IMG/VR virus record: IMGVR_UViG_3300024255_000002
Length of the DNA stretch: 64,000 bases
Strand: one strand, 5' to 3'
DNA from: a virus
The notes under the pieces are model-generated. The model worked only from the letters and a program-made list of their open reading frames with translations. It was not told the DNA's origin and did not search any database. Shown here in pieces: positions 1-61,911 of the stretch (position 1 is its first letter; the number at the start of each line of letters is the position of its first letter). Position numbers and translations under genes: made by a program.

Positions 1-718
1 AGACGACAAGAATGCCTTGCCTTCTTCAGATTTGCCATGGGCATCTGTAATGTTACCGATTACTTCTTCAGGTATATCTGGCATAGGTCAATCACCTCTC
101 GGCCTTGTTGAAGGGTCGTGGGTAATAGGTTTCTTTAAAGATGGACAGAGTTCGCAAGAGCCAATCATACTTGGTTCATTGCCAGGCCGACCAGCAGAGA
201 TGCCAAACACGGCCAAAGGTTTCTATGATCCTCACGGCCAATATCCAAGATACATAGATCGACCAGATGTAAATGATCTTGCAACAGCCATATCAGAGCC
301 GGCCTCGTTAACCACTAGAATACAGGCCAGAGAGACAAACATTCAAGGCGTACTCAACACAACATGGAATATGCCAGAAATCACGGCCGCACCAGTATAT
401 CCAAGTAATCATGTATATGAAACAGAGTCAGGCCATGTATTAGAATTTGACGACACGGCCAATGCAACACGAATACATCTAAGACATAACACAGGCACCT
501 CAATAGAACTGACAAACGATGGCAACTCTGTGGCCATTACAAAAGGTTCGGCCTTTATACAGATAGACGCAGATAACAAGATATACATAAAAGGCAATAA
601 GGCCGTAACAGTAGATGGCAATAGTGAGATAAAAGTCAAAGGCGACTATAAGTTAGATGTAGATGGCTCAGTAAAGATATGGGGAGAGACAATAGATTTC
701 AATGGGCCTAGAGAGTAA
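1..718 (+). CDS. gp5: Baseplate hub/spike protein gp5, 5' truncated by the window
   Basis: LPWA...GSWVIGFFKDG...QEPIILG OB-fold end, YPSNHVYETESGH-EFDDT motif, beta-helix repeats; the frame is open to the window start; no lysozyme domain visible. Confidence 0.9.
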   Translation, partial: DDKNALPSSDLPWASVMLPITSSGISGIGQSPLGLVEGSWVIGFFKDGQSSQEPIILGSLPGRPAEMPNTAKGFYDPHGQYPRYIDRPDVNDLATAISEPASLTTRIQARETNIQGVLNTTWNMPEITAAPVYPSNHVYETESGHVLEFDDTANATRIHLRHNTGTSIELTNDGNSVAITKGSAFIQIDADNKIYIKGNKAVTVDGNSEIKVKGDYKLDVDGSVKIWGETIDFNGPRE

Positions 719-842
719 GGGCCATGTTAATCTTAGTATCTTTGTCTAATCTATAAAAGTAATATAAAGAGAGAGATATATCCATCTATTTTGATATGGG
801 AATTTTTCTCGGATATATTTTTATGTGTCAGAGTCGAGGCCT

Positions 843-868
843 CATTAGAGCATACATTAGAGCATACA
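843..868. repeat. Tandem repeat CATTAGAGCATA x2
   Basis: Copies at 843-854 and 855-866. Confidence 0.85.
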
Positions 869-894
869 ATATAGAAAGGTACCTAATATGATAT

Positions 895-918
895 CGACAA
901 GGTCGGTGACGAAGTCAC
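895..918. other. Two adjacent mini-hairpins
   Basis: CGAC-AAG-GTCG directly followed by GTGAC-GAA-GTCAC, then a T-rich tract. Confidence 0.6.
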
Positions 919-1102
919 TCTCTATTGTGTTATTGTTTGTTTTTCTTACTTCTTGTACTATTACAGACTTTTCCTTTAATAGTTCTAATGTTTCGTTTAG
1001 TTGGAGTATTAGTTATTAGTTTTTCAAAGTAAATTGTTAATAGACTATTAGGTTGATAAGACTGGTATTCTGATCTTTTTTTATACACAATTTTAGTTTT
1101 AT

Positions 1103-1141
1103 TTATACTGGTATAGATTATACTGGAATAGATTATACTGG
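1103..1141. repeat. 15-bp tandem repeat TTATACTGG(T/A)ATAGA x2.6
   Basis: Copies start at 1103, 1118 and 1133. Confidence 0.85.
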
Positions 1142-1373
1142 TCCTGAAGGTTAAGGATATTATACATAGTCTATGTTGAGACGCAAAGGAATAGCTATAG
1201 GTAGCATATGAACATTTGGAAGATATTACAACTAACAATGGCAATTGCAATAATTGTTATACTACTAGGCCTGTCAGTGATATGGCATCACTTAGGGGAA
1301 CTGTGGTTATTATATGGTGAAATAGCGCAACAACTTCTAACCATCTTTTTAAACAACTTAGGGCCTGGTTTGG

Positions 1374-1401
1374 AGGCCTAGTTAATAAGGCCTAGTTAAT
1401 A
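1374..1401. repeat. 14-bp tandem repeat AGGCCTAGTTAATA x2
   Basis: Exact copies at 1374-1387 and 1388-1401. Confidence 0.9.
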
Positions 1402-1460
1402 AAACTAAAAATTTTCGCCTTATTCTTTGATGGTTCGAAAGTGTGAAAACTTGCGGAATC

Positions 1461-1610
1461 TTATTGAGCATTAATTTCTTGTAATACTCTTTCTAATTCT
1501 TTGTTTCTTGTTCTTAGTTGAACCTGGACATCACATGCCGTCTTATAAGTGAAATGTATATAAGTCACTAAGACGGCAGTTACAACAGTTAATGATATCC
1601 ACTTAAGCAT
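1461..1610 (-). CDS. Small membrane-anchored coiled-coil protein (49 aa, not in the ORF track)
   Basis: Manual translation MLKWISLTVVTAVLVTYIHFTYKTACDVQVQLRTRNKELERVLQEINAQ; start overlaps the stop of the upstream ORF. Confidence 0.65.
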   Translation of the reverse strand: MLKWISLTVVTAVLVTYIHFTYKTACDVQVQLRTRNKELERVLQEINAQ

Positions 1611-1893
1611 TAGTGTTAATTCTCATTAGATCAAATGGCACTCTCCATTTTGATTTTCCATCGTTGTGATTATTACTTACTTCAACAGTTGCCTTATTGT
1701 TTCTTGTTCTTAAAACAACACCAACTCTTTGTTGACCATTAGGTCTTCCAAAGACAACTTTACTGCCTGGAATGAACTTTGAATTTTCAACATTTTGTAT
1801 GCAAGCCTTGATCATATAAAGATGTTCAGAATTAGAAGGGTCTCTAATAAATTCTAATATCTTTGGTAAGTCTTTAAATTTTAATTTAGTCAT
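1603..1893 (-). CDS. Hypothetical early protein with a possible SH3/KOW-like C-terminal barrel
   Basis: AAAGGGAGA RBS; FIPGSKVVF...GVVLRT...ATVEV...KWRVPF beta-strand pattern. Confidence 0.75.
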   Translation of the reverse strand: MTKLKFKDLPKILEFIRDPSNSEHLYMIKACIQNVENSKFIPGSKVVFGRPNGQQRVGVVLRTRNNKATVEVSNNHNDGKSKWRVPFDLMRINTNA

Positions 1894-1914
1894 AATGTAT
1901 TTCTCCCTTTATTG

Positions 1915-2073
1915 TTATTGTTTGTTTTGTAAAGTTAACGTTAATAAACCAGATGATATTCCAATAATCATCACAGTAAATCCAATTAAGTAACTATCTT
2001 TTTCAATAAAACCAGCAGCACTGATCATTGACATTATAAAAAGTATAGCAAAAAATGTTGTTAAGTATTTCAT
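1915..2073 (-). CDS. Small two-TM membrane protein (52 aa, not in the ORF track)
   Basis: TAAGGAGA RBS; MKYLTTFFAILFIMSMISAAGFIEKDSYLIGFTVMIIGISSGLLTLTLQNKQ. Confidence 0.75.
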   Translation of the reverse strand: MKYLTTFFAILFIMSMISAAGFIEKDSYLIGFTVMIIGISSGLLTLTLQNKQ

Positions 2074-2082
2074 AGTTTCTCC

Positions 2083-2289
2083 TTATTTAACTTTCATTAC
2101 ACCAGTTTGTTTATAAACTCTGTAATCATGTATTATTTTATTAATAGCATTTTTCATGTTTATATCAATCATTCTTAAAAGAACATCATCAACTTCAATA
2201 ACTTCTTTTATTGTTGATTGCATTTTTTTAATTTTATTGTAAGCAACGTTTCTTACAATTGAAAGATTTAAGTTTGTTGTTTTGTTCAT
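2083..2289 (-). CDS. Hypothetical early protein (68 aa, start MNKTT)
   Basis: AAGGAGA RBS before the ATG at 2289. Confidence 0.75.
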   Translation of the reverse strand: MNKTTNLNLSIVRNVAYNKIKKMQSTIKEVIEVDDVLLRMIDINMKNAINKIIHDYRVYKQTGVMKVK

Positions 2290-2308
2290 AGTGTATTTCT
2301 CCTTTAGG

Positions 2309-2473
2309 TTAGGCAACTTTGTTATTTTTGTTTAAAGAATTTGACATCATTTGCCAAGACATTCTAGTTTGAATACATTTAGACTTATTTCTTATAACAT
2401 GTCTCATTTTACTTTTTTGAGCAGGTAAAAATTGTACTTGCACGTTTTTTGTATTTGTTATTTTCATTTTCAT
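2309..2473 (-). CDS. Hypothetical small basic early protein
   Basis: First ORF downstream of the sigma70-type promoter; start uncertain. Confidence 0.55.
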   Translation of the reverse strand: MKMKITNTKNVQVQFLPAQKSKMRHVIRNKSKCIQTRMSWQMMSNSLNKNNKVA

Positions 2474-2517
2474 AGTGTTTTCTTTTTTGTTAGTGTTGTT
2501 TTTCATAATATGCATAT

Positions 2518-2546
2518 AGTATATAGGAGAAAAGGCGGAATTTCAA
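2518..2546 (-). promoter_or_regulatory. Sigma70-type early promoter
   Basis: TTGAAA-N17-TATACT on the minus strand, preceded by phased A/T tracts (AAAATGG x3, about 2549-2586). Confidence 0.75.
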
Positions 2547-2662
2547 GCAAAAAATGGTATAAAATGGTAAAAAAATGGAAAAAAAGTGTTGACTTTACTT
2601 ATCTTTTTAGGGTGTGCGGATTTGCACAGCAGAACAAAATGAGAACACTCGTTTTTTTTAGT

Positions 2663-2670
2663 CATAAATA
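2663..2670 (+). promoter_or_regulatory. Late promoter variant CATAAATA
   Basis: One mismatch from the T4 gp55 consensus, upstream of the 2709 ORF. Confidence 0.5.
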
Positions 2671-2708
2671 TAAAAAAAACAACGAATCTTACAAGGAGTG
2701 AACAAATC

Positions 2709-2915
2709 ATGGCAAAAATGCGTGAATTTTTATTTTGGAACGAAAAAGGACAAGAAGAAAAAAAAGAAAATACAAGTTTTAAGAAGGCAGTTAAGTCTGT
2801 CCAAGAAAATTTTAAGAATCAATTGATTGGATTTGAATATATTAGTAAAAAAGGCAAAAAAATTGTGTCTTCAATTCAATTACCACTTGGTAGAAAGAAG
2901 AAAATAGGTAGATAA
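2709..2915 (+). CDS. Small basic hypothetical protein
   Basis: AAGGAG RBS; Lys-rich. Confidence 0.75.
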   Translation: MAKMREFLFWNEKGQEEKKENTSFKKAVKSVQENFKNQLIGFEYISKKGKKIVSSIQLPLGRKKKIGR

Positions 2916-3064
2916 TGGCAAAATTAGCAAAATCTTATGTTGCACATGTAAGCAAACCAAAAAAAACATCACAATCAAAGAGAAAAGGTAGTGTAAAAAC
3001 ATCTTCAATGAATAAACACAAAAAAAGACAGTTTAAATCTTATAGTTCGCAAGGAAGAGCATAA
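2915..3064 (+). CDS. Very basic 49-aa protein (not in the ORF track)
   Basis: MAKLAKSYVAHVSKPKKTSQSKRKGSVKTSSMNKHKKRQFKSYSSQGRA; TAATG coupling to the previous ORF. Confidence 0.7.
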   Translation: MAKLAKSYVAHVSKPKKTSQSKRKGSVKTSSMNKHKKRQFKSYSSQGRA

Positions 3065-3068
3065 TAAT

Positions 3069-3332
3069 ATGCCAGGAGTTGCTCGAAAAGGTGTTGATGC
3101 GGCTGGAGGTGTTGCAATTGGTGGAAGTTCAGATGTTTTTGTCAATGGATCGGGAATTGTCAGAGTAGGTGACACTGTTGCAGGACATGGATTACCGCCA
3201 CATTCACCTCCACCACCTATGGTTGGAAAATCATCAACAGTAAGAGCAAATGGTAAGTTTATTTGTCGTCAAGGAGACTCAGCGAGTTGTGGACACAGTA
3301 TTTCTGGTTCAAATAACGTTTTTTCAAATTAA
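3069..3332 (+). CDS. PAAR-repeat spike tip protein (gp5.4-like)
   Basis: GVARKG / IVRVGD / ICRQGD repeats, SCGH metal ligands, GSxxVF ends. Confidence 0.92.
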   Translation: MPGVARKGVDAAGGVAIGGSSDVFVNGSGIVRVGDTVAGHGLPPHSPPPPMVGKSSTVRANGKFICRQGDSASCGHSISGSNNVFSN

Positions 3333-3336
3333 CACA

Positions 3337-3344
3337 TATAAATA
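3337..3344 (+). promoter_or_regulatory. T4-type late promoter
   Basis: TATAAATA 5 nt before the gp25 ATG. Confidence 0.8.
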
Positions 3345-3349
3345 TTGTT

Positions 3350-3775
3350 ATGGCAAACTATGACGCAACATCAACTAATAACTCAAAACGTTCAAATAAA
3401 ATTTATAGTGATTTAAATTTGGATTTTGATCGTAATCCTGCAACAAAAGACGTTGTAAGATTAACAGACGTTGAGGCAGTCAAAAGATCGCTTCGTAACT
3501 TAGTGCTTACTAATCGATTTGAAAGACCTTTTCATCCTGAAATAGGATGTGATCTAAGGGCTTTGTTATTTGAAAACATGACGCCGGTTATTGAGACACT
3601 TATTACAGATAGAATTAAAAGAGTTTTAGATGTTTACGAACCAAGAGCAAATATAGTTGAAGTTACAACAAACGGAGACTTAGATAAAAATGAATACAGA
3701 GTTAGAATTGTTTTTTACGTTGTTGGTTCTCCTGACTTAGTTACTATAACAGAATTTTTACAAAGGTTAAGATAA
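3350..3775 (+). CDS. gp25: Baseplate wedge subunit gp25
   Basis: YSDLNLDF, AVKRSLRNLVLT-ERPFHPEIG, YEPR. Confidence 0.95.
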   Translation: MANYDATSTNNSKRSNKIYSDLNLDFDRNPATKDVVRLTDVEAVKRSLRNLVLTNRFERPFHPEIGCDLRALLFENMTPVIETLITDRIKRVLDVYEPRANIVEVTTNGDLDKNEYRVRIVFYVVGSPDLVTITEFLQRLR

Positions 3776-8272: not shown

Positions 8273-11200
8273 ATGTCAAAACAATTAATCAATATAGGAA
8301 CATTACCCAACGATAACACTGGTGACCCGATTAGAGACGGTGGTGATAAAATTAACGATAATTTTAATGAAATCTACGGTGCAATCGGTGATGGTTCTAC
8401 TTTATCAATTGACGTTTCAAATCCTGTAAACGGTGAGGCATTAATATATAACTCATCAACAGGCAAGTTTGAATCAAACTCAATTGGTGCCGTTCTTTCA
8501 ACACTTACAATTACAGACGATTCATCATCTTCTATAGGTATTGATTTAACAACTGATCAATTAGATGTTACTGGTGGATTAGGTATTGTTTCATCTGTTA
8601 CAGGTACTCGATTAAAATTAGATATTGATCAATCAATTGTAATTACACAAACAGGAACAGAAACATTATCTAATAAAACACTTGATGGTCTTTCAAATAC
8701 ATTTACAAATATACCAAACTCTGCTTTAGTAAATTCAGAATTAACAATAATGGATAGCACATCAACTACTGATTCAGTAGCACTTGGTGAAACTCTACAT
8801 ATAACAGGAGGCAGTACTATCACAACTTCAGTTGCCAACAATGTTTTAACAATTGACTTGGCACCTGCTTTTAAAGAATTCACAATAAGAGATAGTTCAT
8901 CAACTACTGATACAGTAGCACTTGGTGAAACTTTACATATAACAGGAAGTAACGCTATCACAACTTCAATTGCCAACAATGTTTTAACAATTGATTTGGC
9001 ACCTGCTTTTAAATGTACAACTTTAGGAACAACCGTATTAGAATTAGGATGTACAACAACTTGCTTAGAAGGCCTTACTTGTTTTGATTTAGCGTCTGGC
9101 GCTGAAATGAGATTAAGAGGATATCATCCTCTGGGACAATGCAACGTTGCTATTGGTACAACAGCAGACATACCAAACGCTGCTAACGCAAACTGTAACG
9201 TCTCTATAGGATATAATGCATTATGTGGTATTGTTGACGGAACAAATAACATTGCTATAGGAGTAAATGCTCTTTGTGGAATTTCAGATGGATATTGTAA
9301 TATTGCATTAGGTAAGTCTGTTTTGACAAAAGCAGCTCACGGATGCAATAACGTTGCAATTGGGGCAAACATTATGGGAAGCATGTGTGCTGCTTCTAGT
9401 TGCAATGTGTCTTGCAACATTATGCTTGGAGTTAGTTTATTTGATAGTACAAATCCAAGTACATTTACCAGAAATATTGTATTTGGGCAACAAAGTGGTA
9501 ATTGTGTTACTTCTAATGCTCAGGAAAACGTTATTATTGGACGATGTAATTTTCGTAATGCAGTTAGTAACGTTAGTTATAATGTTGCTATAGGTAGAGG
9601 TGCTAGTGGAAATGCTACAGGAAATGATAATATTAGTATTGGAACATCCGCTGGTGAAAACTCAATAACTGGTTATCAAATTGCTATCGGAAGAAGTGCA
9701 GCTTCAAGGGTACAAACATGCTCTGATTGTTGGCAGTGTACTGGAGCAAATAGTTTAACAACAGGCAATCCACCTGCTGTATGTTCTAGTTATAGTGGTA
9801 TTCCAAATTGGTCAAGTAACAATAAGTATGGATGTAACTTTGAACAAACAGCAAACCTTGCAATTGGTAATTTTGCAATGAACTGTGTTTTGTTTGCCGA
9901 TACCAATGTCGTTATAGGACACAATGCGGCTGGGGCTACATGTAATAATACTTTATGTGGAGTTGACACAGGACTTAAAGATTCAGTTGTTTTAGGTAAT
10001 ACTTCAGCAATGAACAATACGCTTGAGGGATCAATTGTTATTGGTAATAGAGCATTTACTTGTATGTGTGATATGTCAGGTGTTCACAATGGAAATCAAG
10101 TACCAACTTTAGCACATTCATTTAACGATGTAATTATTGGAACTGATGCTCTTCAAAGTATTGATGCCAATACATGCTCTTCTGGATGTAACTCATGTGA
10201 AAACGTAGTTTTGGGGGCATATGCCGCTCAACATGTAAGAGGACTAAGTGGTTCAGTTATTATTGGTGCTTGTGCTTATCAATGTGATTTTACTTCCCCG
10301 TTCCATGATGATGTTACAACTGGTGTTGTAGTAGTTGGTGAGGACGGAATGAACAGTTTTTCTTCAACTGATTATTCACCTTGGATAACTGCTGTTGGCG
10401 CTAGTGCTGGACTTTTTACATCATCTGGAGCAGGTATTACTTTACTCGGAACAAATACTTTTGCAAACAATTCACTTTCAGCTTATGGTATGGTTGTGGT
10501 CGGAGACAATGCTCACACGGGTCCATCACATGGTGATTTTGGTGTTGCAAATAACACAATTGTAGGTTCTCATGCTGCTAATAGTTTACATCAAGGATGT
10601 TCAAGTATTGATAGAACTGGATTTAACACTATCATAGGTTCTCATGCAGCTACTGGATTAACTAATTTCATTGATGGACCATCGGGACCTTATTGGTGCT
10701 CTAGTGTTTATGATTTGCGAGATGGATGTAATAACATTATTATAGGATATGCAGCTGCACCATCAGCACAAATTGTTGATGATGAAATTACAATTGGTAA
10801 CCCAGCAAATACAAAATTTAGATTACCTGGTGTTCAGGCAAGTGCTGTAGATGGCCAAGTCTTAACACATAATGCTTCAACAGGATACTTAGAATTACAA
10901 GACGCAGGTGGTGGAACATTAAACGTAATAGATGATAGTTCAACTGCTGTTGCGATAACATTATCAACTGAACAATTACAGATTGCTGGTGGGGCAGGTA
11001 TTACAACATCTGCTTCTGGTAATACAATTACAATATCAAACTCAGCATCTGGTTCTTTAAGTGTATTAGACGATAGTTCAACATCAATTAGTATAGATTT
11101 AGGAACTGAAAGTTTAACACTTGTTGGTGGAACAGGAATTACAACATCTGCTTCAGGCAACACAGTAACTATTGCTAAAAGTTCTAACTCATACAGTACA

Positions 11201-44521: not shown

Positions 44522-45171
44522 AATTTGAAGTAAAACATTTTGGACAAACTTTAATAAAATATCAAGTACCTTACGATATTTTTTTAACAATAAATCGTAT
44601 ATATGAAGCTCGATATGATAAACTTATACCCGCTAATAAAGGATTAGCAGGAAAAATACAAAATGAGCACTCTCTTTATTATAATGGAGAAAGTATCAAA
44701 ATAGCAGAAAGACATAATTTTTTACCACAAGATATATTAAAGTGGTTTAATTCTATATTTAAACATTATTTAATATATAATAAAATAAGTAATTTTAAAC
44801 ATAGAACAAATTCCATATGGATAAATGAAATGAAACAAAACGAATATAATCCTTTACATACACATAATGGTAGTTTATTTACAGGATTGTCAAGTGTGAT
44901 GATACTAAAATTGCCTAATACTTACGGAAAAGAATATTCAGCAGAACAAAATCCTACAAACGGTAGATTACAAATAATTTCATCTGAAAATGGTCAATTT
45001 GGCAGATCAAATTATCAACCACCTATGAATCTTGGAGATTTTTATGTATTTCCTTATGATATGAAACATTGTGTATATCCTTTTAATGGTACAAATGAAA
45101 CAAGAAGAACATTAGCAGCTAACTGTGATGTAGATTATAATCCTGTAATAAATAGAGGAATAAATGAATAG
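44518..45171 (+). CDS. Fe(II)/2OG oxygenase
   Basis: WIN...EYNPLHTH, FPY..KHCVYPF, RRTLAAN. Confidence 0.8.
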   Translation: MKFEVKHFGQTLIKYQVPYDIFLTINRIYEARYDKLIPANKGLAGKIQNEHSLYYNGESIKIAERHNFLPQDILKWFNSIFKHYLIYNKISNFKHRTNSIWINEMKQNEYNPLHTHNGSLFTGLSSVMILKLPNTYGKEYSAEQNPTNGRLQIISSENGQFGRSNYQPPMNLGDFYVFPYDMKHCVYPFNGTNETRRTLAANCDVDYNPVINRGINE

Positions 45172-45769
45172 AAATCCTAGACTAATAACTGAACCAAGAT
45201 GGAAGTCTCATGTTGTAGAAACAAAAACTCCCATTTTTACTCCTGAACAATGTCAAACTATTATAGACATGGGTCGAACTTTACCTAGAATCTCAGCAAA
45301 AGTAGGTGCAAATGAAGGAAAGTTGGGTGATGGTAAAGAAGATAATAAAATCAGAATAAGTCATATATCTTGGATACCTTTTGAAAAATTAAAACCTATG
45401 TATGATGTACTAGAGCAAATGATTCAAAAAGTCAATGGAAACCATTTTGGGTTTGAAGGTATGCAACTAACAGAACTTGCTCAATACACAGAATATTCTG
45501 AAGGTCAATTTTATGATTGGCACATGGACAGTTCTATAGAAATGTCAAAAGAACCAACAGTAAGAAAAATATCTATGACGTGTTTATTGTCACCAGAAAA
45601 TGAATTTGAAGGTGGTGATTTAGAATTAGTTGCGCCTGGTAAAAAAGCAAAATTGACTCAAGGAAATGCTATGTTTTTTGCTTCATTTATAAATCACAGA
45701 GTTACACCTGTTACAAGAGGTAATAGAAAATCTTTAGTAGTTTGGTTTGGGGGACCACCTTTAAAATAA
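45164..45769 (+). CDS. Fe(II)/2OG oxygenase, prolyl-4-hydroxylase/PKHD-like
   Basis: FYDWHMD, RKIS, FEGGDL, HRVTPVTRGNRKSLVVW. Confidence 0.9.
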   Translation: MNRNPRLITEPRWKSHVVETKTPIFTPEQCQTIIDMGRTLPRISAKVGANEGKLGDGKEDNKIRISHISWIPFEKLKPMYDVLEQMIQKVNGNHFGFEGMQLTELAQYTEYSEGQFYDWHMDSSIEMSKEPTVRKISMTCLLSPENEFEGGDLELVAPGKKAKLTQGNAMFFASFINHRVTPVTRGNRKSLVVWFGGPPLK

Positions 45770-59009: not shown

Positions 59010-60524
59010 ATGGAAAACGGTAAAAATGAGATCAATGCTCAAGCTGATCTACCTAGAAAACATGCCGCTCCAGCTGAAGCACCTAAATCATTAGCTGCAA
59101 CTGTTCAACAAGTAATGACAAAAGCAATTACTTCACCAACAGATGCTAAACCAGATTTTGCACAAGGCGTTAAACCTGTATCAGGTGACGCACAACAAAA
59201 AAGTGCAGGTGCTGCTGATGCTATGAAGTCACTTCAAGCACAAGCGGATGCTGAAATCAAAAAAGAAACTTCTTACGAGTCTGAAGACAAAGAGAAAAAA
59301 CACGAAGGCAAAGAAGAAGTTAAAGAAACAGAAGCTGAAACTAAAGACAAAGAAGACGTTAAAAAAGAAGAAAAAGAGGAGAAAAAAGAAGAATTATCTC
59401 CTGCTCAGAAAAAACTTCCTGACGCTTTACAAAAGGCAATCGCTAAAAAAGACGAATCTGCTGACGAGAAAAAAGATGTAAAAGAAGAAGAAGAAAAAGA
59501 GAAAAAAGAAGAAGACGAAAAGAAAAAAGAAGTTTCGGAATCTGAAGAAGATAAAGAAAAAAAAGAAGAAGACGAAAAGAAAAAAGATGAAATCAAAGAA
59601 GAAGATGAGAAAAAAGTAATTCAGGCTGCTAAAGAATATATGAAAGACTCAAGTTGTTCATATAAAGAAGCTGCTGAGAAATACGGTTGCTCTGAATCTG
59701 AAGTTAAAAAACAAGTAGAGTCTATGGAAAAAGAAATGGACGAAGCAGATGAAAAAGAAGTTAAAAAAGAAACTGCACAGGACAAAGTAAAAGACATGGA
59801 TATGAAAGAAGATGTAGCTGCTCTAACTGATGGTGAAAACCTATCGGAAGAGTTCAAACAAAAAGCTGCAACTATTTTCGAATCTGCTGTTAAAGCAAAA
59901 CTTGTAGATGAAATCGAAAAATTAGAAGCAGACTACGATAAAAAAGTCGAAAAGAAAAAAGACGAAGTCAAAGAAGAAATCGTTGACAAAGTAGATGCTT
60001 ATCTAAATTACGTTGTTGAATCTTGGATGAAAGACAACGAACTGGCTATCGAAAAAGGTCTTAGAAATGAAATTACTGAGGAATTTATCGGTGGACTTAA
60101 AAACCTATTTGAAACTCATTACATCAACGTACCGCAAGAGAAGTATGATGTATTAGAGAATCAATCTGCTGAAATTAATTCATTAAAAGATAAACTTAAT
60201 GAATCAATTGAAAAGAACGTTGAGTTAAATCAGAAAATAAATGAATTTGCTAGAGAAGACATCATTAATGATGTTGCTTCTGACTTGGCAGAAACTGAAT
60301 CTGAAAAACTTAAAGGTTTAGCAGAAAGTATTGAGTATAAAGACGCTGGTAGTTTTAGAAAAAGTGTTGAGACATTAAAAAACTCATACTACCCTAAAGC
60401 AAAAGCGAAAGATACTGAATCTAATGTCGTAGCAGAAAACAATCAGACTGTTGATTTATCTGAATCAATGGCTGCCTACACTGCTGCTATTAGTAAACAA
60501 AGAAAGAATCCTTACGATAAGTAA
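59010..60524 (+). CDS. gp22: Prohead core scaffold gp22 with a long Lys/Glu-rich insertion
   Basis: LSEEFKQKAATIFESAV, VDAYLNYVVESW, ELAIEKGL; sits between gp21 and gp23. Confidence 0.93.
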   Translation: MENGKNEINAQADLPRKHAAPAEAPKSLAATVQQVMTKAITSPTDAKPDFAQGVKPVSGDAQQKSAGAADAMKSLQAQADAEIKKETSYESEDKEKKHEGKEEVKETEAETKDKEDVKKEEKEEKKEELSPAQKKLPDALQKAIAKKDESADEKKDVKEEEEKEKKEEDEKKKEVSESEEDKEKKEEDEKKKDEIKEEDEKKVIQAAKEYMKDSSCSYKEAAEKYGCSESEVKKQVESMEKEMDEADEKEVKKETAQDKVKDMDMKEDVAALTDGENLSEEFKQKAATIFESAVKAKLVDEIEKLEADYDKKVEKKKDEVKEEIVDKVDAYLNYVVESWMKDNELAIEKGLRNEITEEFIGGLKNLFETHYINVPQEKYDVLENQSAEINSLKDKLNESIEKNVELNQKINEFAREDIINDVASDLAETESEKLKGLAESIEYKDAGSFRKSVETLKNSYYPKAKAKDTESNVVAENNQTVDLSESMAAYTAAISKQRKNPYDK

Positions 60525-60527
60525 GGG

Positions 60528-60545
60528 TTTAGTTAATTAACTAAA
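60528..60545. repeat. Perfect 18-bp palindrome TTTAGTTAATTAACTAAA
   Basis: Abuts the gp23 RBS. Confidence 0.8.
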
Positions 60546-60561
60546 AAGGAGAGATAGAAAA

Positions 60562-61911
60562 ATGTTTTTATCTGAATCAATACAACAGAAGTGGCAGCCC
60601 GTTTTGGACCATCCTGATCTTCCAGAAGTGAAGAACAGTTACAAAAGAGCCGTAACTTCAGTTATTTTAGAAAACCAAGAAAAGTCGTTAAAAGAAGACG
60701 CTGCTTTCTTATCAGAGTCAGCACCTACTAACGCTACTGGTTCTTCTATTCAAAATTGGAATCCTATCTTAATTAGTCTAGTAAGAAGAGCAATGCCTAA
60801 CCTTATCGCTTACGATATCGCTGGTGTTCAACCTATGTCAGGACCAACTGGTTTGATATTTGCTATGAGAAGCAGATACAACAGCCAATCTGGCGGTGAA
60901 GCTCTTTTTGACGAAGCTGATTCTGATTTTTCTGGCAGAAACAAAGCCGGTTCATCAGTAGATGGATTTTCATCAACAGACCACAGTGGAACTAATCCAT
61001 CTGTACTTAACGACTCATCACCAGGAACTTACACACAAGGTACTGGTATGACTACAGCTGCTGCTGAAGCTCTAGGAGATGCCGCTGGTAACTCTTTTGC
61101 TGAAATGGCATTCTCAATTGAGAAATCAACTGTAACTGCTAAAAGCAGAGCGTTAAAAGCAGAATACACAATGGAACTTGCTCAAGACTTAAAAGCAATC
61201 CATGGTTTAGACGCTGAAACAGAATTATCAAACATCTTATCTGCTGAAATCTTAGCTGAAATCAACAGAGAAGTAGTAAGATCAGTTTATATTACTGCTG
61301 AAAAAGGTGCTTCTGATAACAATGGTAACGCTGTAAACACTACTTCGGAAGGTATCTTTGATTTAGATACTGACTCAAACGGTAGATGGTCAGTTGAGAG
61401 ATTCAAAGGTCTTATGTTCCAATTGGAAAGAGACGCTAATGCAATCGCTCAAAGAACAAGAAGAGGAAAAGGTAATATAATCATTTGCTCATCTGATGTT
61501 GCTTCTGCACTTCAAATGGCTGGTGTTTTAGATTACACTCCTGCTCTTAACAACAACTTAAACGTTGATGATACTGGAAACACTTTCGCTGGTGTATTAA
61601 ATGGTAAATATAAAGTTTACATTGATCCATACAGTGCAAACCAATCTGGTAAACAATTCTACGTTGTGGGTTACAAAGGAACTTCACCATACGATGCTGG
61701 TATGTTCTATTGCCCATATGTACCACTTCAGATGGTAAGAGCTGTTGGCCAAGACACTTTCCAACCAAAAATTGGTTTCAAAACTAGATACGGTTTAGTT
61801 GCGAACCCATTTGCTGGTGCAGCTGCTGACGGTAATATTACTGTTGACGGTATTGGAAATGCTAACGCTAACAGATACTACAGACGTGTTCAAGTTGCGA
61901 ACATTATGTAA
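60562..61911 (+). CDS. gp23: Major capsid protein gp23
   Basis: KW.PVL, LVRRAMPNLIAYDIAGVQPM.GPTGLIFAMR, ELAQDLKAIHGLDAE, FQPKIGFKTRYG. Confidence 0.98.
   Translation: MFLSESIQQKWQPVLDHPDLPEVKNSYKRAVTSVILENQEKSLKEDAAFLSESAPTNATGSSIQNWNPILISLVRRAMPNLIAYDIAGVQPMSGPTGLIFAMRSRYNSQSGGEALFDEADSDFSGRNKAGSSVDGFSSTDHSGTNPSVLNDSSPGTYTQGTGMTTAAAEALGDAAGNSFAEMAFSIEKSTVTAKSRALKAEYTMELAQDLKAIHGLDAETELSNILSAEILAEINREVVRSVYITAEKGASDNNGNAVNTTSEGIFDLDTDSNGRWSVERFKGLMFQLERDANAIAQRTRRGKGNIIICSSDVASALQMAGVLDYTPALNNNLNVDDTGNTFAGVLNGKYKVYIDPYSANQSGKQFYVVGYKGTSPYDAGMFYCPYVPLQMVRAVGQDTFQPKIGFKTRYGLVANPFAGAAADGNITVDGIGNANANRYYRRVQVANIM

Follow-up and report, generated by a model that had tools for sequence, protein, structure and literature searches.

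Why is a baseplate gene of a marine phage packed with a single 4-bp palindrome? The window, i.e. the whole 64,000-nt stretch of IMG/VR virus record IMGVR_UViG_3300024255_000002 that we analyzed, is the structural half of a T4-like myophage genome (32.5% GC) and opens inside gp5, the gene for the baseplate hub/spike, where GGCC sites are crowded. A first-pass annotation of the sequence had listed 19 of these sites, had estimated by eye about 30 in the rest of the window, and had proposed that a second code overlaid on gp5 marks a replication origin, a packaging start or genome end, or a protein-binding or decoy array. All 19 coordinates were confirmed and 33 sites were counted in the remaining 62.6 kb, which gives a density of 13.6 per kb in the array versus 0.53 per kb in the rest of the window. 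The two features in question are as follows.

2 to 718, plus strand: C-terminal 238 codons of gp5 (baseplate hub/spike), the final gene of the late operon; 13 GGCC at synonymous positions.
101 to 1392, no strand assigned: the part of the GGCC array that lies in the window; 19 sites, about one per 70 bp.

We compared these counts with a local dinucleotide null and two codon nulls, the kind of check that the annotation itself had set, and the enrichment survived each of them. Dinucleotide-preserving shuffles of positions 1-1400 (n = 5000) contained 2.4 GGCC on average and 10 at most, against the 19 observed. When gp5 was recoded with the codon usage of the genome (20000 trials), the mean was 0.51 and the maximum 5, while the gene has 13. 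Permutation of gp5's own synonymous codons gave a mean of 5.4, and the observed number was still ~2.4-fold higher (P = 5e-5). The 13 sites in gp5 depend on third codon positions, as had been claimed, with four, eight and one of them in codon phases 0, 2 and 1, respectively; they occupy 13 of the 21 GGCC sites that are synonymously allowed in the 238 codons. The cluster had also been said to continue into non-coding DNA, and we found six sites at 719-1400 where 0.4 were expected.

The enrichment was specific for GGCC. Relative to the rest of the window this tetramer was enriched ~16-fold (smoothed ratio) while the other all-G/C tetramers reached at most 4.6-fold, and each occurrence of CGGC or GCCG in this window overlaps a GGCC. 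Outside the array GGCC occurs at expectation in the window genome (observed/expected ratio, O/E, of 0.9). Pooled over ten loci GGCC was enriched 9.9-fold and its one-mismatch neighbours 1.2- to 3.6-fold. No longer motif was found around the GGCC sites, no Rfam family was matched in window positions 1-3400, and no clusters of GANTC, DnaA boxes or CtrA boxes were found at the window locus.

To see the whole array we used a metagenome contig that crosses the locus and is 84% identical in DNA to the window (L083). It carries 27 GGCC between its positions 9580 and 10900 (1.3 kb) and 12 in its other 11 kb, and its array spans a 125-codon open reading frame (ORF), gp5 and the downstream spacer. It has seven more sites in the ~420 bp before window position 1, so the suspicion that the cluster reaches upstream of the window was borne out. 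An exact-match query of IMG/VR with the first bases of the window gave no match. Protein-based scans of IMG/VR and metagenome contigs yielded 162 loci, and in all members of one clade a GGCC peak of 10-20 per kb sits sharply on gp5. In a gp5 tree this clade had a support of 99 and comprised 29 rows, 25 with strong arrays and four with weak ones; Pelagibacter phage Mosig, the sole cultured near relative, is among the weak. Across the clade the array measures ~25-27 GGCC in 1.3-1.8 kb, and it is kept in this pelagimyophage-like group down to ~42% gp5 protein identity. In the first 101 kb of the window's genome type GGCC clusters nowhere except at the gp5 locus, and in the complete Mosig genome the gp5 region is likewise the GGCC maximum, albeit weak at six sites per 1.5 kb. 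The annotation had held that absence of the cluster from relatives would speak against it; the clade relatives carry the array.

The relatives also indicated what is being kept. Clade gp5 genes use between 56 and 76% of the possible synonymous GGCC sites; the share is 0-3% for other genes of the same genome and 0-15% for outgroup gp5. When the gene's own codons were permuted, GGCC ranked first among the tetramers in all clade members tested (z = 4.3-7.4). A codon alignment placed a few sites at conserved Gly-Arg, Gly-His and Pro-Gly-Arg-Pro stretches, and most were lineage-specific. Among close pairs the third positions within GGCC were identical in 97 of 99 cases versus 950 of 1138 at other synonymous sites (P = 7e-6). 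Among distant pairs GGCC sites turned over about as fast as other synonymous positions but the density stayed; therefore it is the density that is kept. Synonymous sites are saturated across the array clade. The idea of a second code overlaid on gp5 thus stands in so far as the signal is motif-specific, its density is kept across a deep clade and its third positions are conserved among close relatives; the interpretation as a whole was partly supported. An antisense ORF within gp5 was considered as a cause and rejected, since the 138-codon ORF of L083 is broken in the 92%-identical window allele.

In three loci of a sister clade CCGG replaces GGCC at gp5. One of them (L047) has 13 CCGG in 863 bp and none in its other 5.8 kb, and uses 38% of its possible sites. 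Both motifs are palindromes built of G and C alone, which suggests that a symmetric protein recognizes them in double-stranded DNA. Recoding of a gene with a 4-bp palindrome can thus come close to saturation, and sister lineages can use different palindromes, which implies a trans-acting reader. We conclude that the array is real, specific and conserved, and that selection on a signal at the DNA level, read by a symmetric protein, explains it best.

What such a signal might do was approached through its surroundings. The window contains gp5, PAAR, gp25, gp6, tail fibres, homologues of gp13 to gp23, UvsY and UvsW, and the T4-type terminase genes gp16/gp17 lie at 50.3-52.4 kb, ~50 kb from the gp5 array. 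With Mosig as near relative, and with the curli genes CsgF/CsgG present in the window's phage type as described for pelagimyophages (PMC7029224), the host is most likely a SAR11 bacterium. In a full-length relative gp5 has the Pfam domains Gp5_OB and Gp5 trimerisation and no lysozyme domain. The late operon, headed by TATAAATA, runs gp48, gp53, a tail protein, the 125-codon ORF and gp5, and in L083 the 125-codon ORF overlaps the start of gp5. Behind gp5 the window has these features.

719 to 1460, no strand assigned: spacer between the convergent late (gp5) and early units, ~740 bp, six GGCC.
905 to 919, plus strand: hairpin GGTGACGAAGTCACT with a T-rich run after it; terminator-like, at the end of the late gp5 operon.
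1103 to 1147, no strand assigned: 15-nt tandem repeats TTATACTGG(T/A)ATAGA, iteron-like and free of GGCC; two complete copies plus part of a third.
1208 to 1381, plus strand: small ORF of 57 codons with a hydrophobic N-terminal half; DNA conserved in L083; two GGCC.
1374 to 1401, no strand assigned: tandem duplication, two copies of AGGCCTAGTTAATA, one GGCC per copy.
1461 to 2515, minus strand: counter-oriented operon of five ORFs of 49-96 codons, without family matches, transcribed towards gp5.
2518 to 2546, minus strand: TTGAAA-17-TATACT, a promoter-like site of sigma-70 type (10 of 12 matches) that heads the counter-oriented operon.
3069 to 3775, plus strand: PAAR (gp5.4-like) and gp25 genes; gp6 follows.

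Short tandem repeats of three kinds accompany the hairpin and the small conserved ORF in the spacer. Units of 11-14 nt with a GGCC occur there as tandem duplications, and their copy number differs between the window and L083, which has a single copy of the AGGCCTAGTTAATA unit at the matching place but duplicates of other GGCC-bearing units. No terminator-like site was predicted between the counter-oriented operon and gp5. The 125-codon ORF and the small early ORFs matched no Pfam or PHROG family. A stretch of ~130 nt around the hairpin GGTGACGAAGTCACT (window 880-1010) is nearly identical in L083, which makes it more conserved than the coding part of gp5; the stretch may act as a terminator or give rise to a small RNA. 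In the counter-oriented unit of Mosig, 1.1 kb behind gp5, four GANTC (CcrM-type) sites occur within 25 bp (L183:7600-7640).

This arrangement resembles that of a mapped origin of T4. In the T4 GenBank record oriE is placed at 79355, inside gene 5 (77959-79686), with the note 'primer RNA is complement of gene 5 transcript', and repEA and repEB are annotated antisense within gene 5; oriE has been described with 12-nt iterons, dependence on an early promoter and a position at a strand switch (PMC3016281). The window locus shares with it the gene order 53 - 5 - (antisense early genes) - 5.4/PAAR - 6, the place of gp53 being read in relatives, and it too lies in or at gene 5, at the switch of the transcribed strand, with short tandem repeats close by. 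It also has an early-type promoter-like site directed into gp5, which is a prediction here; in T4 an early promoter yields RNA complementary to that of gene 5. Our phage has its early genes behind gp5, unlike T4, where they are inside gene 5. From the position and transcriptional setting of the array, therefore, an oriE-like origin or recombination hot spot is the leading reading. We tentatively take the array to be a selected DNA-level site array belonging to such an element, a reading that we hold with limited confidence. The origin named by the first-pass annotation gains indirect support from the oriE position and from the early-type promoter and operon predicted to point into gp5. On this view the array would most likely be the cis element of a replication origin or recombination hot spot at gene 5, the counterpart of T4 oriE, into which early leftward transcription from the small counter-oriented operon would run antisense to gp5. 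At its dense palindromic sites a symmetric protein of restriction-modification type may dock or place modifications. Hardly any origins or other cis-acting DNA signals have been mapped in the T4-like marine phages of SAR11, which are hard to grow, and the array is a sharp, conserved, sequence-defined landmark where T4 has oriE, hence a concrete target for methylome, origin-mapping and recombination studies.

The most plausible candidates for binding the sites would be the phage's own N4-cytosine-type methylases. We surveyed precomputed Pfam hits along a 146-kb contig of the same phage type, of which ~139 kb was read, and along a sister contig, and read the stretch from ThyX to gp48 on sister contigs. 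No C5-cytosine methylase (PF00145) was seen in the ~139 kb or in the ThyX-to-gp48 stretch, and no Vsr-like gene was seen in the stretches read. The search for a GGCC methyltransferase that the annotation had suggested gave no C5-methylase in these stretches but two paralogous candidate N4-cytosine methylases of 421 and 359 residues. Both contain an S-adenosylmethionine (SAM) motif, VLDTSCGWG in the 421-residue protein, and the sequence FTSPPYF; SPPY is the motif IV typical of N4-cytosine methylases. Matches of both to PF01555, phrog_67 and PADLOC MTase_II were weak. The 421-residue candidate shares 29% identity with Vibrio phage proteins that carry the annotation N-4 cytosine methylase, and the Atlas clusters nearest to it are viral and labelled 'cytosine-N(4)-specific'. 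Neither protein was found in cultured pelagiphages or cyanophages. Their loci (L187:5318-6583 and L169:17525-18604) belong to the same genome type, ~85 kb and ~71 kb from the window start; one candidate stands beside gp43 and the MT-A70 adenine methylase that adjoins it, and the other closes a triad of hydroxylase, 144-residue ORF without Pfam match, and methylase.

A 4-bp palindromic, methylase-type motif packed far above chance and coding need is also what characterizes the GATC sites of oriC and P1 pac. At oriC of Escherichia coli the GATC sites belong to the Dam/SeqA system, and the GATC-containing elements of P1 pac lie inside a coding gene. Here the motif is GGCC (CCGG in the sister lineage) instead, the array is ~10x longer, and the link to a methylase is by candidates only. 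Origin activity, GGCC methylation and gating by methylation state are inferences, the gating a possible one. The genome type has a further candidate player, a 479-residue protein with a C-terminal HNH domain encoded between gp32 and gp4 (L195:13105-14544), whose nearest Atlas clusters carry GmrSD_N. It is a candidate for a modification-dependent nuclease encoded by a lytic phage, and a GmrSD_N-related HNH nuclease together with candidate cytosine methylases in one genome recalls the McrBC/GmrSD-type (Type IV) systems. A dense modified patch is what Type IV modification-dependent nucleases need for a good substrate. Known nucleases of this type attack foreign DNA, and we know of no phage that uses one on an array of its own. 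It is conceivable, though a long shot, that a lineage-specific palindrome patch co-evolves with the phage N4-cytosine methylases and, once methylated, is cut or nicked in gene 5 by the phage's GmrSD-like HNH nuclease, which would seed recombination-dependent replication and gp5 allele exchange and make the array an epigenetically timed origin.

Several observations weigh against an oriE-like origin or hot spot served by such proteins. The iterons of T4 oriE are evenly spaced 12-nt units, whereas here GGCC spacing is non-periodic, without helical phasing, and the spacer holds only short tandem repeats; the centre of the array is the 5' half of gp5, ~1 kb from those repeats. T4 gene 5 has no tetramer cluster, and no homologues of RepEA or RepEB were found by tblastn (E > 0.7), so the resemblance to oriE is positional and architectural and not one of family membership. 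Mosig has a weak array although no homologue of the 421-residue protein could be detected in it. Restriction-modification systems are very rare in SAR11 hosts (PMC7029224). Finally, the GC content at third codon positions (GC3) of gp5 is raised in the whole group, array-free members included (0.27-0.41 vs 0.10-0.27 in neighbouring genes), and part of the signal is therefore not motif-specific.

This last observation leads to the rival that fares best, namely that the array is a functionless by-product of motif-biased repair or gene conversion on heteroduplex DNA at a recombination hot spot in gp5, either Dcm/Vsr-like or a general GC bias. The gene is indeed mosaic. From position 2459 on the window matches a 149-kb contig (L163/L174) at 97% identity, and over 720-2500 at 88%, yet the gp5 allele of that contig is a different one, 382 codons long and just as rich in GGCC; when window 1-720 was compared with L163:5988-7136, the gp5 alleles of 277 and 382 codons aligned in the first third only. 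A gp5 that is mosaic between genomes with 97% identical backbones is what would be expected at a recombination hot spot, on the leading reading as well, and several gp5 protein clusters have been noted in pelagimyophages, in keeping with a hyperdivergent gene (PMC7029224). Biased repair would also account for the raised GC3 outside GGCC in array-bearing and array-free lineages alike, for two loci (L092 and L089) in which GGCC is above expectation along the whole locus, and for the turnover of individual sites between distant relatives. Very-short-patch repair by Dcm/Vsr in Escherichia coli likewise lifts a short palindrome above expectation without coding need. That effect, however, is genome-wide and transition-driven, whereas here the enrichment is local, with GGCC at expectation elsewhere in the genome, and the gains are mostly non-transitions. 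Only 13 of the 33 one-step differences at gained or lost GGCC sites were transitions, the commonest alternative being GGCA/TGCC, a transversion, and the one-mismatch neighbours, including the transition precursors GGTC/GACC and GGCT/AGCC, were not clearly depleted in the array. Moreover, spacer sites were gained by tandem duplication, and neither a Vsr-like gene nor a C5-methylase was seen in the stretches read. We consider biased repair an unlikely account of the array.

It is less likely still that the array is a locally hypermodified or self-marked patch, in which the GGCC cytosines are modified as a decoy, a shield or a regulatory mark (one against antisense transcription or a host factor, for instance) and which is no origin. 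The candidate N4-methylcytosine (m4C) methylases would fit such a patch, as would a TET-associated glycosyltransferase (PF20691, E = 4.7e-15) encoded between ThyX and gp32 in a sister backbone (L184:2793-3590), which hints at DNA hypermodification in some members. In a marine survey by SMRT (single-molecule real-time) sequencing GGCC was among the methylated motifs found in viral genomes only (PMC9516812); the supplement of that paper gave no GGCC detail. The glycosyltransferase is absent from the window's genome type, though, and no TET/JBP enzyme was found; a weak Tet_JBP match at window 45164-45769 resolved to a PKHD-type hydroxylase. Assemblies often break in gp5, which a modified patch might cause, but breaks are common in array-free lineages as well, where the figure is 40/107 against 13/22 in array lineages. 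We therefore rejected the breaks as specific evidence for modification or for a terminus. Given the breaks in array-free lineages and the known gp5 protein clusters, the breaks speak for allele diversity and not for a terminus. The gene is a recurrent contig break point in many marine T4-like lineages and, of practical note, in metagenome assemblies of these phages.

An RNA-level or translational signal is very doubtful. Rare G/C-ending codons could slow translation of the trimeric spike, or GGCC stems could structure the gp5 mRNA or its antisense partner, and the raised GC3 of gp5, its codons that are rare in the genome, and the predicted convergence of sense and antisense transcription would agree with this. 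The array, however, extends into the upstream ORF and 700 bp of non-coding DNA, GGCC exceeds what gp5's own codon usage yields, and no Rfam family was matched. Both motifs are palindromic, which a single-strand signal would not need.

A P1-like packaging start (pac) or fixed genome end, as the annotation had offered, is highly improbable. In its favour, the window record and the independent 146-kb contig (99.86% identical to the window) both begin in gp5, the latter 51 bp before window position 1, and of eight contigs that share an identical gp53, five stop within gp5, at nt 214-772. On the other hand, contig ends are scattered over gp5 nt 65-772 (~700 bp), array-free lineages break there too, and two contigs (149 kb and 19 kb) read straight through the gene. 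Where pac sites are known, they are in the small terminase gene or next to it, and the T4-type terminase genes are 50 kb away here. A recent import of gp5 from a GC-richer donor, for which only the local GC of 0.40-0.46 against 0.325 for the window would speak, was refuted by the tetramer spectrum, in which other GC tetramers are not comparably enriched (equal enrichment is what the annotation had named as a sign of import), and by an array that reaches into non-coding DNA and is kept across a clade with saturated synonymous sites.

With regard to other palindromes, CATG was raised at gp5 in a third lineage (L040:4776-5981, L044 and L127), with 13-14 sites vs ~2.4 expected. This is a weak lead; in L023 and L036, two close relatives of that lineage, the codon-permutation null did not put CATG among the top tetramers. 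Outside the array the window has no CGCG at all in 62.6 kb (0 vs 9.7 expected), and CGCG is also missing from genome positions 53-101 kb. CCGG (O/E 0.49) and CATG (O/E 0.59) are depleted in the window outside the array, though SAR11 hosts are said to be without restriction systems. Among related lineages CATG is nearly absent in L088-L098 and GATC wholly absent in L113, L127 and L136. GANTC has 11 sites in window 60000-61000, a 1-kb stretch that covers most of the major capsid gene.

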